A stretch of 64,000 nt of DNA from NCBI GenBank assembly GCA_040376695.1, contig JBEIQD010000002.1:14633-78632 (forward strand), written 5' to 3'. The stretch's first letter is position 1; each line of letters starts with the position of its first letter. The notes under the pieces are model-generated. The model saw only the letters and a program-made list of their open reading frames with translations. It did no database searches and was not told the DNA's origin. The translations under genes and the position numbers were made by a program. Shown here piece by piece: positions 3,740 through 62,682 of the stretch. This DNA is from Candidatus Nomurabacteria bacterium. GTDB taxonomy: Bacteria > Patescibacteriota > Minisyncoccia > Phycocordibacterales > UBA5272.

Positions 3740-3785
3740 ACAAGCCACAAAAAAAAGCCGCACATGTGCGGCTTTTTTCTTTACC

Positions 3786-5042
3786 TTATTTATAATACCG
3801 AGCAATAAAACTATTTTTAAATTCTATAAATCTTCCTTCTTGTAATGCTTTTCGTGCGTCATCAACAAGTGCTGTTAAGAATTTTAGATTATGAATTGAA
3901 GCTAATGTTGCAGCAAGCATTTCGTCTGCTCTGAATAAATGTGAGAGGTAACTTTTTGTATACCCGTGTGTGTACCACGTCGCATCCTCCGATACTGGAG
4001 ACATGTCATCTTTATACTTTGCGTTAGTAATATTAATACGTCCATCAAGGGTGTATAGTGTTCCATTTCTTCCGATACGAGTTGGTGCAACACAATCAAA
4101 TGTATCGATACCGTTTTCAATAGCGAGTAACATATCAAGCGGTTCCCCGATACCGAGAAGATGTCGAGGCTTTCCGACTGGCAATTCCTCACACACCCAT
4201 CGCACTGCCGTTGCCATGTCGTCTTTAGTAAAACTTCCACCGATACCGTATCCATCAAAATCCATGTCGCCAAGTATTTTTGCAGACTCACGACGAAGTT
4301 CTTCATACGCACCACCTTGCACGACTCCAAAAAGCGCCTGTATCTCGCCTGTTGCCGCTGATACACCTAATCGTTTATGTTCATCGAGACTACGCTTTGC
4401 CCATCTATGAGTTCTATCCATCGCCTCTTTCTGATACGCGATAGGAGCAAGCGGGCTAGTACATTCATCAAATGCGAAAAAAATATCTGCTCCAAGATTA
4501 TGTTGTATCTGCATACTACGTTCAGGAGTGAACCTATGTTTACTTCCATCAATGACTGATTTAAATGTCACCCCCTCTTCATCAATGTGTGCCATTTTTT
4601 CATGAATACTTTCTTGCGCGATTTCTTTTTCTTCACGCTTACTCAACGTAGATTCATACGCTGAAATTTCTTCACTTGTTGCGATCTTACTTACTCCGTG
4701 CCCAAGAGCTTGTCCTAATGAGAACACTTGGAATCCTCCTGAATCAGTTACAGAAGGGAGAACTTTGCCATCTTTTTTCCAGCCCATCATGTTTGGAAAA
4801 CCTCCATGCTTGGCAACTATTTCATCCCCTGGTTCAAGATAGAGATGATACGTATTTGCAAGAACAGCCTGAGCGCCGACAGCGTCACGAATCTGCTCAG
4901 CTGTGAGGGCTTTAACTGTGGCTTTTGTACCAACAGTAATAAAGGCAGGTGTTTGTATATCTCCGTGTGGAGTATGAATAACCCCCGACCGAGCAAGTGG
5001 AGCCTCTTTAGAAGAGTGCGTTATCTCGAAAGAAAATGACAT
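3786..5042 (-). CDS. tgt: Queuine tRNA-ribosyltransferase (tRNA-guanine transglycosylase)
   Basis: FITVGTKATVK, FQVFSLG and DCVAPTRIGRNGTLYT motifs. Start moved from the ORF-track 5087 to the ATG at 5042 (MSFSFEI...), which has TAGTAT 8 nt upstream (leaderless). About 60 aa C-terminal extension relative to typical Tgt. Confidence 0.8.
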   Translation of the reverse strand: MSFSFEITHSSKEAPLARSGVIHTPHGDIQTPAFITVGTKATVKALTAEQIRDAVGAQAVLANTYHLYLEPGDEIVAKHGGFPNMMGWKKDGKVLPSVTDSGGFQVFSLGQALGHGVSKIATSEEISAYESTLSKREEKEIAQESIHEKMAHIDEEGVTFKSVIDGSKHRFTPERSMQIQHNLGADIFFAFDECTSPLAPIAYQKEAMDRTHRWAKRSLDEHKRLGVSAATGEIQALFGVVQGGAYEELRRESAKILGDMDFDGYGIGGSFTKDDMATAVRWVCEELPVGKPRHLLGIGEPLDMLLAIENGIDTFDCVAPTRIGRNGTLYTLDGRINITNAKYKDDMSPVSEDATWYTHGYTKSYLSHLFRADEMLAATLASIHNLKFLTALVDDARKALQEGRFIEFKNSFIARYYK

Positions 5043-13911: not shown

Positions 13912-14080
13912 AGTTTTGAAATAATACCTTATTTTAGCTAAATATGCAAGACATTTTATGGAAAAGGCTACCATATCTATATCATTGACAATATACAACA
14001 AAAGTTGTAGGATGCGAAACAGGTGTTGTTTAACAACAAACAAGTAAATAGGTCTCATAATTTTCAAGAAAGGAAGTGAT

Positions 14081-14959
14081 ATGGCGACAGAAACACGGTC
14101 TATAGGACCTGCAGCTAAAGACTTCATGCAAGCTGCACGAGCGCAAGCGGGAGGCCCTCCACCACCTGCCCCCAAAACACCACCTGCTTCATCTGGCAAC
14201 AGCGGAACAGGAGACGGTAACTCTGGCTCATCCGGAGGAACTGGTGGCGGGGGTGGAAAGAGTGGCGGGGGCGGTGAAAACCATCCTCCAAACCATGGAA
14301 AAAGTTCACAAGCCTCTGATGGCTTTAACCTGAAAATGGATGCTCGGCGATGGATTATTTTGCTCTTCATGGCCATTACCTCAGGCTGCATTGTGTACTA
14401 CACCATGTGGCGCACAACTCCTGCAGGGCAAAAAGTTCAAGCTCAAGAAAACAGCCTCGATGAACAGCGGATCAAACTTGCTCGAGACAAAGAACAAGTG
14501 AAGATGATGAGAATTGCAGCAAAAAGCGGTGCAAAGATGCCTGCGGTATCAAATGGGGCGTCAACATGTTTAACCCTCGCCGACTCTGCTGGAATTTCCC
14601 GCTCTACAGCCTTTGAGCTTTCCTTCGGACAGTGTGCCTCGTTTACAGCAACTGGAGCGCGGCAAACTTTTTGGGTTAACCTCAACAGCGCACCCAAAGA
14701 AATCAACGGCAAGGCGTCTTTCAACAACTTGCGCGAAGAACGAGCCGACGAGAAAATAGCCCGAAAGGAAAGGTGTCTCGCAAAAACCAATGACGCTGAA
14801 TTCTGTGAGAAGGAAATGCAAAGACAGCGAGGTGTACGCCTCGATGAAGGTTGTATTACCCAATCATCCCCTGACCTGTGTCTCGGTTACCTCAAAAACC
14901 GAACCAGCACCCCGCTCATCGTTCACACCGATGAGAGTATCAACATTGTCATGAACTGA
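14081..14959 (+). CDS. Hypothetical secreted or membrane protein with Gly/Pro-rich N-terminal region and Cys-rich C-terminal domain
   Basis: SD aaAGGAAGtgat. Low-complexity GGPPPPAPKTPP...GGTGGGGGKSGGGG, one TM helix, about 10 Cys in the C-terminal half. Local GC about 55%. Confidence 0.5.
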   Translation: MATETRSIGPAAKDFMQAARAQAGGPPPPAPKTPPASSGNSGTGDGNSGSSGGTGGGGGKSGGGGENHPPNHGKSSQASDGFNLKMDARRWIILLFMAITSGCIVYYTMWRTTPAGQKVQAQENSLDEQRIKLARDKEQVKMMRIAAKSGAKMPAVSNGASTCLTLADSAGISRSTAFELSFGQCASFTATGARQTFWVNLNSAPKEINGKASFNNLREERADEKIARKERCLAKTNDAEFCEKEMQRQRGVRLDEGCITQSSPDLCLGYLKNRTSTPLIVHTDESINIVMN

Positions 14960-14970
14960 AGGAGAAATCT

Positions 14971-15234
14971 ATGAGCGCACCCGAAGAAAAGAAAAAGATT
15001 ACTGCTGGCGAAATTTTTGGCTACGCTGTCCTAGGTGGACTCGGTGTCGGCCTCGGCTTTTACCTGTTGGCACTGTTCTTTGGTATGGGAGTCGAAGCGA
15101 TCGGTGTCGCCAAGCGCCGCTACCCTGAAATCATCATGGGGTTGATCATGCTTGTGTTGCTCGCAGCCTTTATGGGCGGCGGTGGCAAAAAAGCAGAAGG
15201 TGGTGGCGACAAAAAAGCAGACGCCAAGCACTGA
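14971..15234 (+). CDS. Small membrane protein (2 TM)
   Basis: SD GAAGGAGaaatct. 87 aa. GC-rich like the preceding gene. Confidence 0.45.
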   Translation: MSAPEEKKKITAGEIFGYAVLGGLGVGLGFYLLALFFGMGVEAIGVAKRRYPEIIMGLIMLVLLAAFMGGGGKKAEGGGDKKADAKH

Positions 15235-24462: not shown

Positions 24463-25098
24463 TTACATCTCGTGGAAGAGAACAACCTCACCCAACTTCC
24501 CATCAATATCTTTTCTCTTAATAGTGAGCTTTTCAACTGGTTCAACTTTTTCTGCTCCTGCTTCTTTTAGGAAGATTGGAATTGATTGCTCGTTGTAATC
24601 CATAGGAATGATAAGTTTTGGCTCAAGAGACACAGCAAGCTTATGTGCATCATATGCATTAAGAAGGAATCCATCTTCTCCAACTGGAATAAAGAGAACA
24701 TCTGTTTCATCAATAATTTCCTTATGCGCAGGTTCAAGCATATGCGAAAGCGCTCCGAGGAACGTCACCTTGATACCATCAAACGTAAAACAGTAACTTG
24801 TGTTCTGATACTTCTTTGCCGTCTTCCCTTCCTTTAATTCAACTTCTGTACCAAATCCTTTAATAAAGATATCAGCAACTTCATATTCCCCCGCTCCCAT
24901 AATCACGAAAGGAGTCTTACCTCCGTGTTCTGTTTGTTCACGACCGTTATAGTCTGGGTGGTTTGTTGTAATAAGACACACATCTGCGCCGTATTTAGCA
25001 ACTTTCCCTGTTCCGTCTTTAGAAACAGGATTAAGGGCAAAGGTTGTATCTCCAACCTGAAATTTGAAGTGTTGTCGTCCGAAATGAGTGATAATCAT
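24463..25098 (-). CDS. MBL-fold metal-dependent hydrolase (UPF0173-like)
   Basis: MIITHFGRQHFKFQVGDTTFALNP... typical of YtkL-like beta-lactamase-fold hydrolases. TGgTAGAAT 6 nt before the ATG. Confidence 0.7.
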   Translation of the reverse strand: MIITHFGRQHFKFQVGDTTFALNPVSKDGTGKVAKYGADVCLITTNHPDYNGREQTEHGGKTPFVIMGAGEYEVADIFIKGFGTEVELKEGKTAKKYQNTSYCFTFDGIKVTFLGALSHMLEPAHKEIIDETDVLFIPVGEDGFLLNAYDAHKLAVSLEPKLIIPMDYNEQSIPIFLKEAGAEKVEPVEKLTIKRKDIDGKLGEVVLFHEM

Positions 25099-25156
25099 GT
25101 GGAGTATTCTACCATAGCTTTTTTATTTAGACAGTATGTATAAGGGTTGTAGATAC

Positions 25157-25184
25157 TTGACAAATATAGTAAATAGTGTATAAT
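25157..25184 (+). promoter_or_regulatory. Near-consensus sigma70-type promoter driving the GC-rich islet
   Basis: TTGACA (25157-62), 16 nt spacer, TGTATAAT (25177-84). Palindrome GTATCTAGGATAC sits at the predicted TSS. Confidence 0.4.
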
Positions 25185-25244
25185 AGTATCTAGGATACCC
25201 GAGTTTCATTTTTGTACTTTAACAACAACCAAGGAGAAGACAGC

Positions 25245-25631
25245 ATGTGCACGCTCATGATTGATAACCAGTCCCGACTCATTGCCTGGACTGGCCAACA
25301 GGTCAACCTGAAAGCCGAAGACAAGAAAATGACGCGGACGCAAAAACGCCGTGCTCAACGCAAAAAAGCACAAACCAAAGCCGTCATGGCTGTCACACAG
25401 CACCCCAGCATCGCGCTGGACGAAGAAGTGACTTGCTTCACATCCTCGTCACGCGAGCCTTTCCGCTTCAATGGCCACCCCGCTTTTGAGCGCCAAGGAA
25501 CACGGGAGAAGTGCAGCGAACACAACCGCGGACGCAAGTCTGTCCACAAAGACCGCCGCTTCCGTGCGAACGGTTCTGGCAAAACACGCGCACCTCACAC
25601 CCACGTGTTGTCACACTCCGATGAGCTGTGA
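25245..25631 (+). CDS. Hypothetical basic protein in GC-rich islet
   Basis: SD cAAGGAGaagacagcATG. 128 aa, Lys/Arg-rich (TRTQKRRAQRKKAQTK). GC about 57%. Confidence 0.4.
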   Translation: MCTLMIDNQSRLIAWTGQQVNLKAEDKKMTRTQKRRAQRKKAQTKAVMAVTQHPSIALDEEVTCFTSSSREPFRFNGHPAFERQGTREKCSEHNRGRKSVHKDRRFRANGSGKTRAPHTHVLSHSDEL

Positions 25632-25830
25632 ATTCTGCCGTCGCGGACACGACGATCACGCAGAAGCCTGTCCAATCGCAAGCGGAAAAGTGGATCCGGT
25701 CAAAAGGGATGCGTTTAACGCAGGCTTCAATGATATCTTGCTAGACAAACTTAGAGCCCAAAACCCTGAAGATCCGACCTACATGCTCGGCTACCAGCAG
25801 GGAGAAACACTCCACACTGAGCACAGCTGA
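25621..25830 (+). CDS. Hypothetical small Cys/His-containing protein, start overlaps the upstream ORF stop (ATGAGCTGTGA)
   Basis: 69 aa, MSCEFCRRGHDDHAEACPIASGK..., -1 frame relative to the upstream ORF with an 11 nt overlap suggesting translational coupling. Confidence 0.3.
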   Translation: MSCEFCRRGHDDHAEACPIASGKVDPVKRDAFNAGFNDILLDKLRAQNPEDPTYMLGYQQGETLHTEHS

Positions 25831-25841
25831 TCAGCTCCCCC

Positions 25842-25880
25842 AAAATCCCGCCCACATCTTAGGATGCTGGGCGGTTTTTA
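25842..25880 (+). terminator. Rho-independent terminator closing the GC-rich islet
   Basis: aaaatCCCGCCCAcatcttaggatgcTGGGCGGtttttattt. Confidence 0.55.
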
Positions 25881-26018
25881 TTTATTCACGTCACCCATTG
25901 TTTGATTGCCTTTTACCCCCATTTGTTGTAGTATTACGAACATCTATTAATAGATAACGTTCTGGCGTAACCCCTACCCCTGCAGGCATTTGAGGAGTAG
26001 ACCACCAGACCGAAGGTT

Positions 26019-26047
26019 AACCGCCTTTTGTGGCGGTCATTTTTTTA
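26019..26047 (+). terminator. Terminator or attenuator hairpin 11 nt upstream of the rpsA start codon
   Basis: AACCGCCttttgtGGCGGTcattttttt. Confidence 0.45.
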
Positions 26048-36735: not shown

Positions 36736-38256
36736 ATGAATGAAGCGTCTGAAATACAGAAAATTGCACAGTTTATTAAGCATATTCGTCAACAGCAAGG
36801 TATCACTCAAGAAGAATTTGCTAAAGCCTTAAAAACTACCCAAAGTGCAGTTGCTCGTATTGAAAGTGGTAACCAAAATATTACTATTGAACAACTCTCA
36901 AAAATCAGCGAAGTGCTTAAGCGGCCGATACTCTCGCTCAATGATACTATCGATTTTCAAGTAGAAGGAGAAAGGAAACTTTCTGGATCTATTGTCACCA
37001 ACACCTCAAAAAATGGTGCCATCAATATGATGGTCGCAGCTCTTGTAAACAACGGGACCACTGTTCTTCATGGTATCCCACATATTGAAGAGGTATATCG
37101 CTATAAAGAACTCTTGGAGAGTGTGGGTGTAAAGATCCGCTGGACCCACAATGATAGCGCTCTTGAAATTACTCCAGGTAAAAAACTATCCCTTACAAAA
37201 ATAGATAAAGAGGTTGCTGCACGCATTCGATCATTCACGTTTGCCGGAGCTTTTATTCACTATACCAATAGTTTTAACCTACCTCATTCCGGAGGATGCA
37301 AAATGGGAGAACGAACCGTTGCAAGCCACAAGTACGCCCTAGATTACTTAGGGGTAACCGTGGTTACGAAAGAAAACCATTACGTGGTTTCTCATAAGGA
37401 ACTTAAATCGGGGTCAACAATTCCCCTCTACGAAGCATCTGATACTGGCGCCATAACAGCCATTATTGCCGCTTCAAAAATTGAAGGAAAGACAACTATT
37501 AAATTTGCACCACCAAATTATCAAGTACAAGATGTTTGTTTTCTTCTAGAGCGATACGGAGTAAAAATAGATGGCATTGGGACTACGACACTTATTGTGC
37601 ATGGAAAAAAGAACATAGACGTGAATATCGAACATTACAATAGCGAGGACCCTATTGAGAGTATGTTCTTTATTGCTGCTGCGATTGTTACCAAATCAAC
37701 GCTCACTATTACACGTTGTCCAATCGATTTTCTTGAACTTGAGCTTGAAAAGTTAAAGCGAATGGGGCAAAAATATAAAATTTCCAAAGTGTACAAAGCA
37801 AAAAACGAAAGAACCTCTCTTGTAGATATTACTATCACTCCATCAAAGCTTATTGCCCCACATGAAAAGATAGCGGCCCAACCATACCCGGGAATTAATA
37901 ATGATAATTTACCTTTCTTTGTACCTATTTCACTCATGGCAGAAGGTCAAACCCTCATCCATGACTGGACATGGGAAAACAGAGCAATCTATTTTACAGA
38001 GCTTAACCGTCTTGGAGCTGACATTAAACTCCTAGACCCTCACCGAGCCCTTATAACAGGAAAGAATCGACTTCGAGGTGCACAGATTGTTTCACCTCCC
38101 GCACTTCGCCCGACAGCCATCATTCTTATTGCCATGCTTGCTGCCGAAGGAACATCCCTTCTTCGCAATGTGTATTCAATCAAACGAGGGTATGCTGATA
38201 TCGCTGAGCGCCTCAATTCTATTGGTGCAAAGATAACTGTTTTAAAAGGTATCTAA
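36736..38256 (+). CDS. murA: UDP-N-acetylglucosamine 1-carboxyvinyltransferase with N-terminal XRE-type HTH domain (fusion)
   Basis: Residues about 1-65 form an HTH_3 domain (QQGITQEEFAKALKTTQSAVARIESGNQNITIEQLSKISEVL). The remainder aligns along the full length of MurA (KNGAINMMVAALV...; PHSGGCKMGERTV with the catalytic Cys; C-terminal LRPTAIILIAMLAAEGTSLLRNVYSIKRGYADIAERLNSIGAKI). TATACT 8 nt before the ATG. Confidence 0.8.
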   Translation: MNEASEIQKIAQFIKHIRQQQGITQEEFAKALKTTQSAVARIESGNQNITIEQLSKISEVLKRPILSLNDTIDFQVEGERKLSGSIVTNTSKNGAINMMVAALVNNGTTVLHGIPHIEEVYRYKELLESVGVKIRWTHNDSALEITPGKKLSLTKIDKEVAARIRSFTFAGAFIHYTNSFNLPHSGGCKMGERTVASHKYALDYLGVTVVTKENHYVVSHKELKSGSTIPLYEASDTGAITAIIAASKIEGKTTIKFAPPNYQVQDVCFLLERYGVKIDGIGTTTLIVHGKKNIDVNIEHYNSEDPIESMFFIAAAIVTKSTLTITRCPIDFLELELEKLKRMGQKYKISKVYKAKNERTSLVDITITPSKLIAPHEKIAAQPYPGINNDNLPFFVPISLMAEGQTLIHDWTWENRAIYFTELNRLGADIKLLDPHRALITGKNRLRGAQIVSPPALRPTAIILIAMLAAEGTSLLRNVYSIKRGYADIAERLNSIGAKITVLKGI

Positions 38257-54484: not shown

Positions 54485-56239
54485 TTATTCTTCTTGTAGA
54501 AGTTTCCGTAGAACACCCTCTTCAACCTCTCTTCTTTTCTGTTCAACTTCTTCTCTACGTGTTTCTATGTTTGCAGCGCTTGCTGGCGGGATTACTTCTC
54601 GTTCATTCATGGCCTTTGCAAGAGCGTCTTTAAGGGAAACTGCTGGCTTATCATCAAATGAAGCTGGTTGTCTCTCTTGTTGTGGTGCAGGATTTGGTCG
54701 TGTATCTCGCCTAGCATCATCACGTCTGTCACCTTGTCGCCTCTCGTCAGTTCTCCTTTCTGTTTTTCGGTTATCATTTTGTGAATAGCTTGGAGTTCTT
54801 GATTCCTGTCTATATTCAGTTCTTTGCTGAGGCTTATGCTCAGATCTTTGTTCATTTCTTGGAAGCGGAGTGTCATTGCGTATCTCTCGAACCTTCACGA
54901 CCGCCTGGTCTTGCTTTGCAGCTTGTGGAACTTCTTTTATTATCGGCTTATAAAACTCTGTTACTTCGTTAGTCACATCATCTACTGGTTTACCGTAGGT
55001 TGCCCGAGAATAGGCAATAATTGCCTGAGCATGAGAATGTGCAGGACGAACGATTGGATCAAGCGTGTGGGCAGAAAATGGCTTAGAACCCACCCCGTCA
55101 ATCATAAGACGAAGATAGATTTGATACGCCGAAAGATTCACGATGTCATCCATAATGAAATATGGCGCAAACTCCTTTTCAAAAGCTTCAGCGTCAGTTG
55201 CTCCCACTCGGAAGGTAATCATCGTACCCACGTTTCCAAAGACCGCAGCCTTCACTTCATCTTCCATTTGCTCAATATACTGATGGGCAACGGTGAGCGC
55301 AAGATTATACTTTCGTGACTCTGAAAGAATAGATGCAAACGATTCATTGGCGAAGTTCTGAAACTCATCCACATAGAAATAAAATGGAGGAAGTTTTTCA
55401 AGTTCGTACGGCCCAGCGTCTGCTCGAGACATTGCAGCTAAATATATTTTTGTAATCAAAAGAGAACCGATAAGGTTTGCATTTCCTTCTCCCACTTTTC
55501 CTTTTGAAAGATTCACAATAAGAATCTTTTTGTTATCCATGATGTCTCGGAGATCAAACGATGTCTTCTGTTGTCCGATGATGTTACGGATGAGAGGGTT
55601 TGAGATAAACTGCCCAATCTTATTTTGAATTCCAGGCGCTGCCTCTTGTTGATACTTATCTCCTGCTTTCGCATACTCCTCTTCCCAGAATGATTTTACG
55701 GAAGGGTCTTTAACATTACTCACAATAAATTTTCTGTACTCTTTATCGTTAAGCATTCTGTTTACGCCGAGCAATGACTGTCCTTCGTTTTCAAGAAGAG
55801 CAAGGATAATGTTATTTAAAATATATTGAATACGATCAGAGAATCGTTCTTCACCGAACACTTTCTTAAACGCTGCCATAAGACCGTTTGCAACCAAGTG
55901 ACGCTTAGATGTTTCAACTTTTTCAAGCACATTCAACCCCATTGGGTGTTCACTATCAAACGGTGCAAAATAAATAACGTCTTTAATACGAGACTCAGGA
56001 ATAAAGTCGAGCAACTTTTCTGCCATAGAGCCATGAGGGTCAATCACGCACAAACCTTCTCCGTTTTGAATATCCTGCACAGCAAGATTCTCAAGAAGAG
56101 TCGATTTACCCATACCTGTCTTTCCAATGATATAGGTATGACGAGTTCGATCACGCTCTTTAATCCCAAACGTGATTTGTTTGTTACGAAAATCAACCTT
56201 TCCTATATAAGTTACTTTTTCCTTGTGAGGATCTGACAT
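54485..56239 (-). CDS. Soluble VirD4/TraD-like (type IV coupling protein family) P-loop ATPase with charged low-complexity C-terminal tail
   Basis: HTYIIGKTGMGKSTLLENL..VIDPHGS; Walker B FYFYVDEFQNF; LTVAHQ. No N-terminal TM segment. C-terminal 130 aa rich in R/D/E/Q. Start at 56239 (MSDPHKEK) with TATACT 8 nt upstream. Confidence 0.5.
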   Translation of the reverse strand: MSDPHKEKVTYIGKVDFRNKQITFGIKERDRTRHTYIIGKTGMGKSTLLENLAVQDIQNGEGLCVIDPHGSMAEKLLDFIPESRIKDVIYFAPFDSEHPMGLNVLEKVETSKRHLVANGLMAAFKKVFGEERFSDRIQYILNNIILALLENEGQSLLGVNRMLNDKEYRKFIVSNVKDPSVKSFWEEEYAKAGDKYQQEAAPGIQNKIGQFISNPLIRNIIGQQKTSFDLRDIMDNKKILIVNLSKGKVGEGNANLIGSLLITKIYLAAMSRADAGPYELEKLPPFYFYVDEFQNFANESFASILSESRKYNLALTVAHQYIEQMEDEVKAAVFGNVGTMITFRVGATDAEAFEKEFAPYFIMDDIVNLSAYQIYLRLMIDGVGSKPFSAHTLDPIVRPAHSHAQAIIAYSRATYGKPVDDVTNEVTEFYKPIIKEVPQAAKQDQAVVKVREIRNDTPLPRNEQRSEHKPQQRTEYRQESRTPSYSQNDNRKTERRTDERRQGDRRDDARRDTRPNPAPQQERQPASFDDKPAVSLKDALAKAMNEREVIPPASAANIETRREEVEQKRREVEEGVLRKLLQEE

Positions 56240-61019: not shown

Positions 61020-62660
<1,641 letters not shown>

Positions 62661-62666
62661 ATTTAA

Positions 62667-62682
62667 TAGAGTGTGACAAAAG
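62667..62682. repeat. 5' arm of the 16S processing stem
   Basis: TAGAGTGTGACAAAAG, 6 nt upstream of the mature 16S 5' end. Confidence 0.6.

Follow-up and report, generated by a model that had tools for sequence, protein, structure and literature searches.

Two overlapping genes in a GC-rich islet

The window analysed here, by which we mean the whole stretch of 64,000 nucleotides (64 kb) taken from contig JBEIQD010000002.1, comes from a Candidatus Nomurabacteria bacterium, a member of the Paceibacteria ("Nomurabacteria"-like Patescibacteria of the candidate phyla radiation, CPR). The organism is of a groundwater type. Patescibacteria make up a large share of bacterial diversity, yet the majority of their small genes still lack an assigned function. 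Our subject is a GC-rich islet with two small overlapping open reading frames (ORFs), ORF1 and ORF2, located between the gene of a metallo-beta-lactamase (MBL)-fold hydrolase (minus strand, 24463-25098) and the promoter and leader RNA of rpsA, which encodes ribosomal protein S1. An initial annotation had described the islet as a near-consensus promoter, a palindromic operator, a strong Shine-Dalgarno (SD) sequence, a Lys/Arg-rich ORF overlapped by a Cys/His-containing one, and a strong terminator, and had suggested that it is a horizontally acquired regulatory or addiction-type module. Its features are the following:

25157..25184, plus strand: sigma-70 consensus promoter TTGACA-N16-TATAAT (TTGACA at 25157-25162, a spacer of 16 nt, TATAAT at 25179-25184)
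25186..25198, plus strand: palindrome GTATC-TAG-GATAC (GTATCTAGGATAC) at the predicted transcript start
25191..25244, plus strand: 5' leader of about 55-60 nt, holding UUUAACAACAAC and an SD-like AAGGAG at 25231-25236
25245..25631, plus strand: ORF1, 128 aa, with 15 Arg and 11 Lys and a net charge of +13
25621..25830, plus strand: ORF2, 69 aa, with 3 Cys and 4 His, its start overlapping the ORF1 stop by 11 nt (ATGAGCTGTGA)
25848..25886, plus strand: intrinsic terminator, CCGCCCACATC / TTAG / GATG(C)TGGGCGG and then TTTTTATTTATT, as seen in the sequence and in the minimum-free-energy fold

Both ORFs and all of the listed signals are thus present in the sequence, and the promoter is in fact perfect: it scores 12 out of 12 against the consensus and is the only such promoter in the 64 kb, where 0.07 would be expected by chance. 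It is conserved in the related contigs L001, L004, L010, L012 and L013, and similar promoters are found 5' of ORF1-family genes in distant genera. The transcript start was placed by inference at 25191, 7 nt after the -10 box. Six relatives with different coding interiors retain the leader that follows at 85-98% identity, and the AAGGAG in it lies 8 nt 5' of the ORF1 ATG (25245). The terminator is as strong as had been claimed, with a bulged hairpin of 11 bp (25848-25874) directly followed by a T-run, and the hairpin is kept by compensatory changes in L001 (CCAACATC..GATGTTGG) and L013 (CCCGACATCG..GATATCGGG). The palindrome is present as well, but it is probably not an operator, because perfect palindromes of the 5-N3-5 type occur 89 times in the window (about one per 720 nt), i.e. 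at chance level, and because its left arm differs in L001, L004, L010 and L013. Conservation is seen in its right half, TAGGATACCC, which belongs to the leader. Judging from these signals, the islet is a self-contained bicistronic operon that is probably strongly transcribed.

In base composition the unit is clearly atypical from promoter to terminator. GC content is 51.7% over 25150-25880, 54.9% in the core (25246-25830) and 56.2% in ORF1, so the figure of about 57% given initially was slightly high, although the islet does hold the top GC content of the window. Its GC-richest 600-nt stretch (0.555) is the highest of the 64 kb and lies outside the normal range of the genome (background mean 0.411, standard deviation 0.032, z = 4.3), exceeding even the 16S gene. 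At third codon positions GC content (GC3) is 0.64 in ORF1 and 0.54 in ORF2, compared with a mean of 0.33 across 54 long ORFs, and the ORF1 value is above the maximum of 0.60 found among them.

In AT-rich genomes a GC-rich island often turns out to be an RNA gene, and one may therefore consider that this segment is primarily a structured RNA, non-coding or dual-function, in which the ORFs are incidental or secondary. The folding of the transcript agrees with such a scenario, with a z-score of -4.3 for the unit in the window and scores between -3.0 and -5.1 for its counterparts in three relatives, and coding sequences alone reach -0.7 to -7.6 in cassettes as opposed to +0.2 to +0.9 in host controls. 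Moreover, silent sites have diverged less than those of the neighbouring gene (see below), and a stop-free run of the length of the ORFs arises in about 5% of shuffles. What speaks against an RNA is that purifying selection is specific to the two reading frames. For ORF1 the ratio of nonsynonymous to synonymous divergence (dN/dS) lies between 0.21 and 0.50; for ORF2 it ranges over 0.07-0.84, with most values about 0.2. The ratio stays below 1 in every pair, whereas in shifted frames it is 0.8-2.5; the indels between relatives are in frame, and protein motifs persist where the DNA can no longer be aligned. Furthermore, no conserved helices could be defined, cassettes of different types having non-homologous interiors. 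As candidates, known RNA families were rejected: neither the window nor 11 related loci had an Rfam match at the gathering score, and only chance-level ones appeared at E up to 10. Searches of the islet for tRNA and tmRNA genes found none. An RNA-first reading is thus very unlikely in our view. Because in-frame dN/dS is low relative to the shifted frames and the indels keep the frame, we take it as established that ORF1 and ORF2 are real genes under relaxed purifying selection. Both have homologs in relatives, and both evolve far faster than their neighbours, for which dN/dS is 0.02 (S1) and 0.01 (MBL-fold hydrolase).

A slot with exchangeable contents

The order MBL-fold gene (minus), S1 (plus) is kept in nearly all of 80 relatives (reference genomes), with a gap of 60-3958 nt between the two genes. 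In many of them the core of this slot is GC-rich, with values that reach 0.69 over 300 nt where the hosts themselves have 36-48% GC. The cassette is patchily distributed: some relatives have an empty site, and L013 has a different cassette. Slots without a cassette were seen in L028 (164 nt), L027 (207 nt) and L014 (311 nt), and in the empty sites of L027 and L028 the promoter region of the MBL-fold gene is joined directly to the rpsA promoter and leader. The promoter, leader and terminator of the islet recur in six related contigs that differ in their interiors, and the second gene may be one for a protein with two transmembrane segments (2-TM). The cassettes are composed as follows:

Window, L010, L011 and L012: first gene ORF1, second gene ORF2
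L001-L003: first gene ORF1, second gene a 2-TM protein
L004: first gene with the ORF1 N-terminus and a different C-terminal half, second gene ORF2
L013 (flanks about 90% identical): first gene a 60-aa basic ORF, second gene a 2-TM protein

In L001 the cassette retains the ORF1 tail next to its 2-TM gene, and the ORF2 homologs of L004, L010 and L012 are 83-94% identical to that of the window. Small 2-TM partner genes were found in L001, L013, L016 and L021. Synonymous divergence (dS) is 2-4 times lower in ORF1 than in the adjacent MBL-fold gene of the same genome pairs, 0.18 versus 0.72 between the window and L010 and 0.12 versus 0.23 between the window and L012. Such a difference would be expected if cassettes moved laterally between relatives, or if silent sites were constrained. 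In the mechanism that we propose, the conserved cassette ends would act as homology arms, so that interiors may be exchanged by recombination among related genomes with no dedicated mobile element. The locus presents a conserved expression chassis, made of promoter, leader and terminator, into which different small genes are swapped at a fixed site.

The same slot is occupied by diverged relatives over a much wider range. Members of the ORF1 family reside in it in L015, L019, L020, L032, L035, L040, L042, L043 and L044, and in L096 the MBL-fold gene (minus) is followed by a promoter, an ORF of 67 aa, an ORF2 homolog with 40% identity, and S1, the 67-aa ORF having an ORF1-like N-terminus and a C-terminus like that of the L013 ORF. 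These distant units follow one design, i.e. TTGACA...TATAAT or TATACT, a leader of 55-65 nt and, 7-12 nt 5' of the start codon, a motif similar to AAGGAG, which is present in 17 of 19 slot units across genera; all of them are GC-rich, with GC3 of 0.53-0.83. When about 90 loci were scanned in six frames, motifs of the GRKxxYKDRRFR type (see below) occurred only in plus-strand ORFs of the slot, barring two short matches (L061 and L084) that are probably spurious. All cassette homologs that we found come from the same bacterial clade, and the ORF1 and ORF2 families are small, unnamed and lineage-restricted. Since diverged members of both families hold the same slot across many genera, we read the islet as an old, fast-turning resident gene class of the slot and not as a one-off import. 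The initial suggestion of horizontal acquisition was thus partly right: the atypical composition, the empty sites and the exchanged interiors agree with it, but no signs of mobility were found and a single horizontal import is not supported.

An autonomous unit of foreign composition whose layout is SD-led in a host without the anti-SD (see below) could also be a remnant of a prophage or mobile element (a "moron") recently inserted beside rpsA. Indeed, the islet shares with phage morons, and with allelic cassette-replacement loci such as bacteriocin-immunity and surface-antigen regions, conserved flanks that enclose non-homologous interiors and a promoter-gene-terminator organization with atypical composition. 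However, the arms of the islet are the expression signals themselves, each about 40-110 nt long, and its contents are ORFan small proteins with no recombinase, attC-like site or phage context. We observed no relatives of the cassette in IMG/VR viral contigs, phage genomes or plasmids, and at the islet there are no integrase or mobility genes, terminal, flanking or att-like repeats, or target duplication, only short repeats of the kind expected by chance. Given also that the same families sit at the same site in many genera, we give a recent moron next to no credence.

The composition of the cassettes also bears on the addiction-type module of the initial annotation, namely a horizontally acquired type II toxin-antitoxin pair autoregulated at the palindrome. 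Similarly to such operons, the islet has a strong promoter from which a pair of small overlapping genes would be transcribed together, one partner being very basic and the other acidic or neutral, and it combines atypical composition with patchy presence and allelic diversity at the site. Nevertheless, searches of Pfam, PHROGs, NCBIfam and PADLOC gave no match to a family of toxins, antitoxins or defence proteins for ORF1, ORF2 or any variant, and no ribbon-helix-helix, helix-turn-helix or AbrB domain was detected in the products. The palindrome, as noted, is at chance level and not conserved. The partners, moreover, are shuffled independently, with the ORF1 of the window type pairing with either its ORF2 or a 2-TM gene, and this ORF2 pairing with two different ORF1 C-termini; that they are not kept as cognate pairs argues against any strict toxin-antitoxin or effector-immunity pairing. 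Lastly, the neighbours of the islet are syntenic housekeeping genes, and its locus is syntenic across genera and unlinked to mobile DNA, with no mobility genes, flanking repeats or relatives on plasmids or phages. There is therefore little chance that the islet is an addiction module, although a regulatory role is conceivable given the basic, disordered ORF1 and the knuckle pattern and weak Rmf/CrpP resemblance of ORF2 (see below).

Several further observations concern the contents and the annotation of the slot. Additional small-ORF units are present in L043 (2029-2245), L020 (about 3924-4073), L001 (230-454) and L032 (4690-4878), encoding acidic proteins of 49-74 aa; those of L043 and L020 have MNEALF...DDIVRAIELAE in common, and the units of L043 and L032 are directly preceded by a consensus promoter. 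These units are independent, and a slot can therefore hold two or three in tandem. The slots of L050 (4911-5992) and L075 (4970-5926) contain 300-500 nt at 0.67-0.72 GC with no convincing ORF and no Rfam match, preceded in L050 by a consensus promoter; such stretches may represent an undescribed RNA or very short ORFs. No paralogs of ORF1 or ORF2 occur elsewhere in the window. A 20-mer search of metagenomes with the leader gave five matches (L005-L009) that are due to chance, having no cassette behind them, and a 25-mer leader search of genome contigs gave none, the GTDB representative (L013) differing at the site. ORF1 was missed by gene callers in three assemblies (L010, 9625-10011; L011, 4682-5068; L012, 1986-2372), the exact ORF2 of the window does not figure in a set of 15 billion proteins, never having been called as a gene, and neither protein is named in public records. 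Annotation systematically falls short for small, overlapping, GC-rich genes of this kind, and our literature search found no earlier description of the locus.

The predicted proteins and their possible function

ORF1 comprises an N-terminal MCTLMIDNQSRLIAWTG hairpin, a basic helix (KRRAQRKKAQ) and a disordered tail with a GRKSVHKDRRFR motif, and its family has the consensus MC-x-[LV]-[IMV]-I...IAWTG at the N-terminus and GR[KN]xxYKDRR(FR), i.e. GRKxxYKDRRFR, at the C-terminus. The AlphaFold2 model places strands at residues 2-6 and 9-13 and a helix at 31-51, the rest having a pLDDT (predicted local distance difference test) below 50. ORF1 has no match in Pfam, PHROGs or PADLOC, and its family profile has none in the PDB at E up to 10. 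ORF2 has the CCHC knuckle pattern C3-x2-C6...H13-x3-C17-P18 and then FNAGFND and NPEDPTYMLGYQQGE motifs. An exhaustive hidden Markov model search yielded five distant full-length homologs (P0011 and P0014-17), and the residues C3, C6, H13, C17, P18, G35, Y54 and G57 are invariant in the family, which has two [FWY]xxG-type motifs after the knuckle. A longer version of ORF2 (119 aa, from the ATG at 25471) was considered and rejected, as the frame is closed upstream in L004 and L096 and conservation starts at M-x-C-E-F-C.

Only one known family, ribosome modulation factor (RMF)/CrpP, emerged for the ORF2 family, and it was recovered by four independent searches, all of them weak. The Pfam RMF model matches two ORF2 homologs with E = 0.0064 and 0.04; its cut-off is 27.9 bits, and P0015 and P0016 reach 14.4 and 17. 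NCBIfam models gave a best E-value of 2.7e-4 (RMF), for two members only, and values of 0.037 (Rmf_CrpP_fam) and 0.042 (CrpP_fam). The RMF structure 2jrm is the only PDB match (E = 0.08), and hhalign against an RMF alignment gave E = 3e-4 with a probability of 40%, covering only 29 columns. In size (68-88 aa) ORF2 and its homologs are like RMF/CrpP (PF04957; NF011162, NF041886, NF033696), and the family motif C-P...R..[FW]..G[FW].D[AG] aligns to CPY...R..WLGGWR.A of RMF. In contrast to RMF, ORF2 has in addition a zinc-knuckle pattern, CxxC...H...C, at its N-terminus and a repeat, [DN]PxYxLG[YW]xxG, at its C-terminus, and it lacks the KRQKRDR...RGYQAG segment of the RMF N-terminus. The setting is different too: RMF acts near the anti-SD of 16S rRNA, and this sequence is missing in the present host. 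Since all scores are below the family thresholds, we treat the resemblance as a weak lead, not as membership.

Taking these data together, our preferred explanation is that the islet is a bicistronic accessory operon, held in a recombination-prone slot beside rpsA, whose small products probably bind RNA or the ribosome. The operon would be read from the consensus promoter through a leader of about 60 nt, ORF1 and the overlapping ORF2 to the intrinsic terminator, ORF2 presumably being translated by coupling to ORF1 via the 11-nt overlap. ORF1 would be a basic, largely disordered protein anchored by its N-terminal hairpin and the GRKxxYKDRRFR motif, and ORF2 a zinc-knuckle protein with an Rmf/CrpP-like element, the two together providing an accessory, fast-evolving modulation of translation or RNA metabolism. 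Nucleic-acid binding is suggested by the charge of ORF1 (+13), its basic helix and disordered tail, and by the invariant CxxC...H...CP of ORF2. The anatomical and evolutionary part of this explanation we consider highly probable. The functional part, namely nucleic-acid-binding and likely RNA- or ribosome-binding products, is a tentative assignment, possible but not one we would count on, and the explanation as a whole strikes us as rather probable, with considerable room for doubt.

Several points weigh against this explanation. The 2-TM second genes, one of which comes near the T4SS_pilin threshold, fit poorly with a module directed purely at the ribosome. Recombination is deduced from the mosaicism and the low dS, and expression of the islet from its sequence only. 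The ORF2 of the window, taken alone, matches no family in Pfam or NCBIfam, and all RMF-type scores of its homologs are under the curated thresholds, with an aligned stretch of about 29 residues. Structure prediction, which had been proposed for both products at the outset, yielded models of low confidence for ORF1 and ORF2 (pLDDT 53-54), and Foldseek searches of the models against the PDB found no match.

An alternative explanation is that the ORF1 family consists of cationic effector peptides that resemble bacteriocins or are directed at a host, with immunity or an accessory role for the product of the second gene (ORF2 or the 2-TM protein) and turnover driven by diversifying pressure. Small cationic proteins that are hypervariable, with conserved N-termini and variable C-termini, next to small 2-TM partners (L001, L013, L016, L021) would suit such a locus, as would the swapping of alleles within conserved flanks, which is typical of bacteriocin-immunity regions. 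CPR bacteria, in addition, are thought to depend on other cells. Nonetheless, no signal peptide, double-glycine leader, transporter or modification enzyme is encoded nearby, ORF2 is soluble and zinc-knuckle-like rather than membrane-bound, no family match was obtained, and dN/dS is below 1 in every pair. We judge an antagonism or immunity locus unlikely.

If the Rmf-like signal is real, the locus could open a first way into the control of ribosomes in these reduced, slow-growing organisms. Should the signal prove spurious, the slot still serves as a handy marker of strain-level gene flow in groundwater Paceibacteria.

Translation signals and the rpsA leader

The layout of the islet contrasts with that of the AT-rich genes around it, in agreement with the initial annotation, which had described the latter as leaderless. 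An SD-like 4-mer precedes only 5 of 44 long host ORFs, and many host genes have a TATACT-type -10 box 7-12 nt 5' of the ATG and no SD, which implies that host mRNAs are mostly leaderless. Examples of TATACT boxes lie upstream of the starts at 36736, 28814, 41790 and 62966, and, on the minus strand, at 56239, 21164, 20567 and 8177. The 3' end of the host 16S rRNA (61030-61080, minus strand) reads GGAUUAAUUCAAUG, compared with GGAUCACCUCCUUA in E. coli, and no CCUCC anti-SD is present there or in the next 100 nt. Parcubacteria lineages are listed among the organisms that have no CCUCC (PMC10783764). Accordingly, the strong SD that had been proposed is present as a motif but cannot pair with this 16S, and AAGGAG cannot act as a classical SD in a host whose 16S has no CCUCC. 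The 16S gene itself (61030-62667, minus strand) is 1638 nt long, compared with a model of 1533 positions, and contains an insertion of about 55 nt in place of 18 nt near model positions 80-99. Such rRNA expansions are typical of CPR bacteria. All cassette mRNAs fold better than their shuffles.

A bolder version of our explanation can be formulated on this basis. Because the 16S rRNA has lost its anti-SD and other genes are leaderless, AAGGAG might be read non-canonically, and the slot might represent a hypervariable set of ribosome-directed small proteins (ORF2, ORF1) made from leadered, structured, GC-rich mRNAs. This is a long shot, but were it true it would mean a second, dedicated regime of translation initiation for accessory genes in Patescibacteria. 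The genome itself shows a sharp split between leaderless, AT-rich housekeeping genes and leadered, GC-rich, strongly structured accessory genes that have AAGGAG despite the lack of the anti-SD in the 16S.

The right border of the slot is formed by one more feature, outside the cassette:

25929..26046, plus strand: conserved non-coding element 5' of S1, its conservation being seen by blastn

It includes a promoter-like (-10-like) TAGTAT, a perfect palindrome (ATCTATTAATAGAT, 25942-25955), a structured RNA (25934-26015) in which a covarying helix, CG.UCUGG/CCAGA.CG, surrounds a variable hairpin, and a terminator-like hairpin (26020-26037) with a T-run about 12 nt before the S1 ATG (26058). A covariance model of the element found 33 loci, always just 5' of S1. 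Pairing in the closing helix reaches 99%, three of its pairs covary, and the covariation score of 0.201 was reached by none of 500 shuffles (compared with 0.111 in shuffles). The element belongs to no Rfam family, and it is a candidate for an autoregulatory leader or attenuator of S1, or for a small RNA. In L043 it occurs twice in tandem (3773-3871 and 3924-4008).

Finally, a second GC-rich unit of the same design as the islet was observed in the window at 13985-15234. It starts with TTGACA (13985-13990)-N17-TAGGAT and a leader of about 70 nt that holds UUUAACAACAAACAAG (compare UUUAACAACAACCAAG in the islet) and AAAGGAAG, and it encodes a Gly/Pro-rich ORF of 292 aa (14081-14959) followed by an SD-led (GAAGGAG) membrane ORF of 87 aa (14971-15234).

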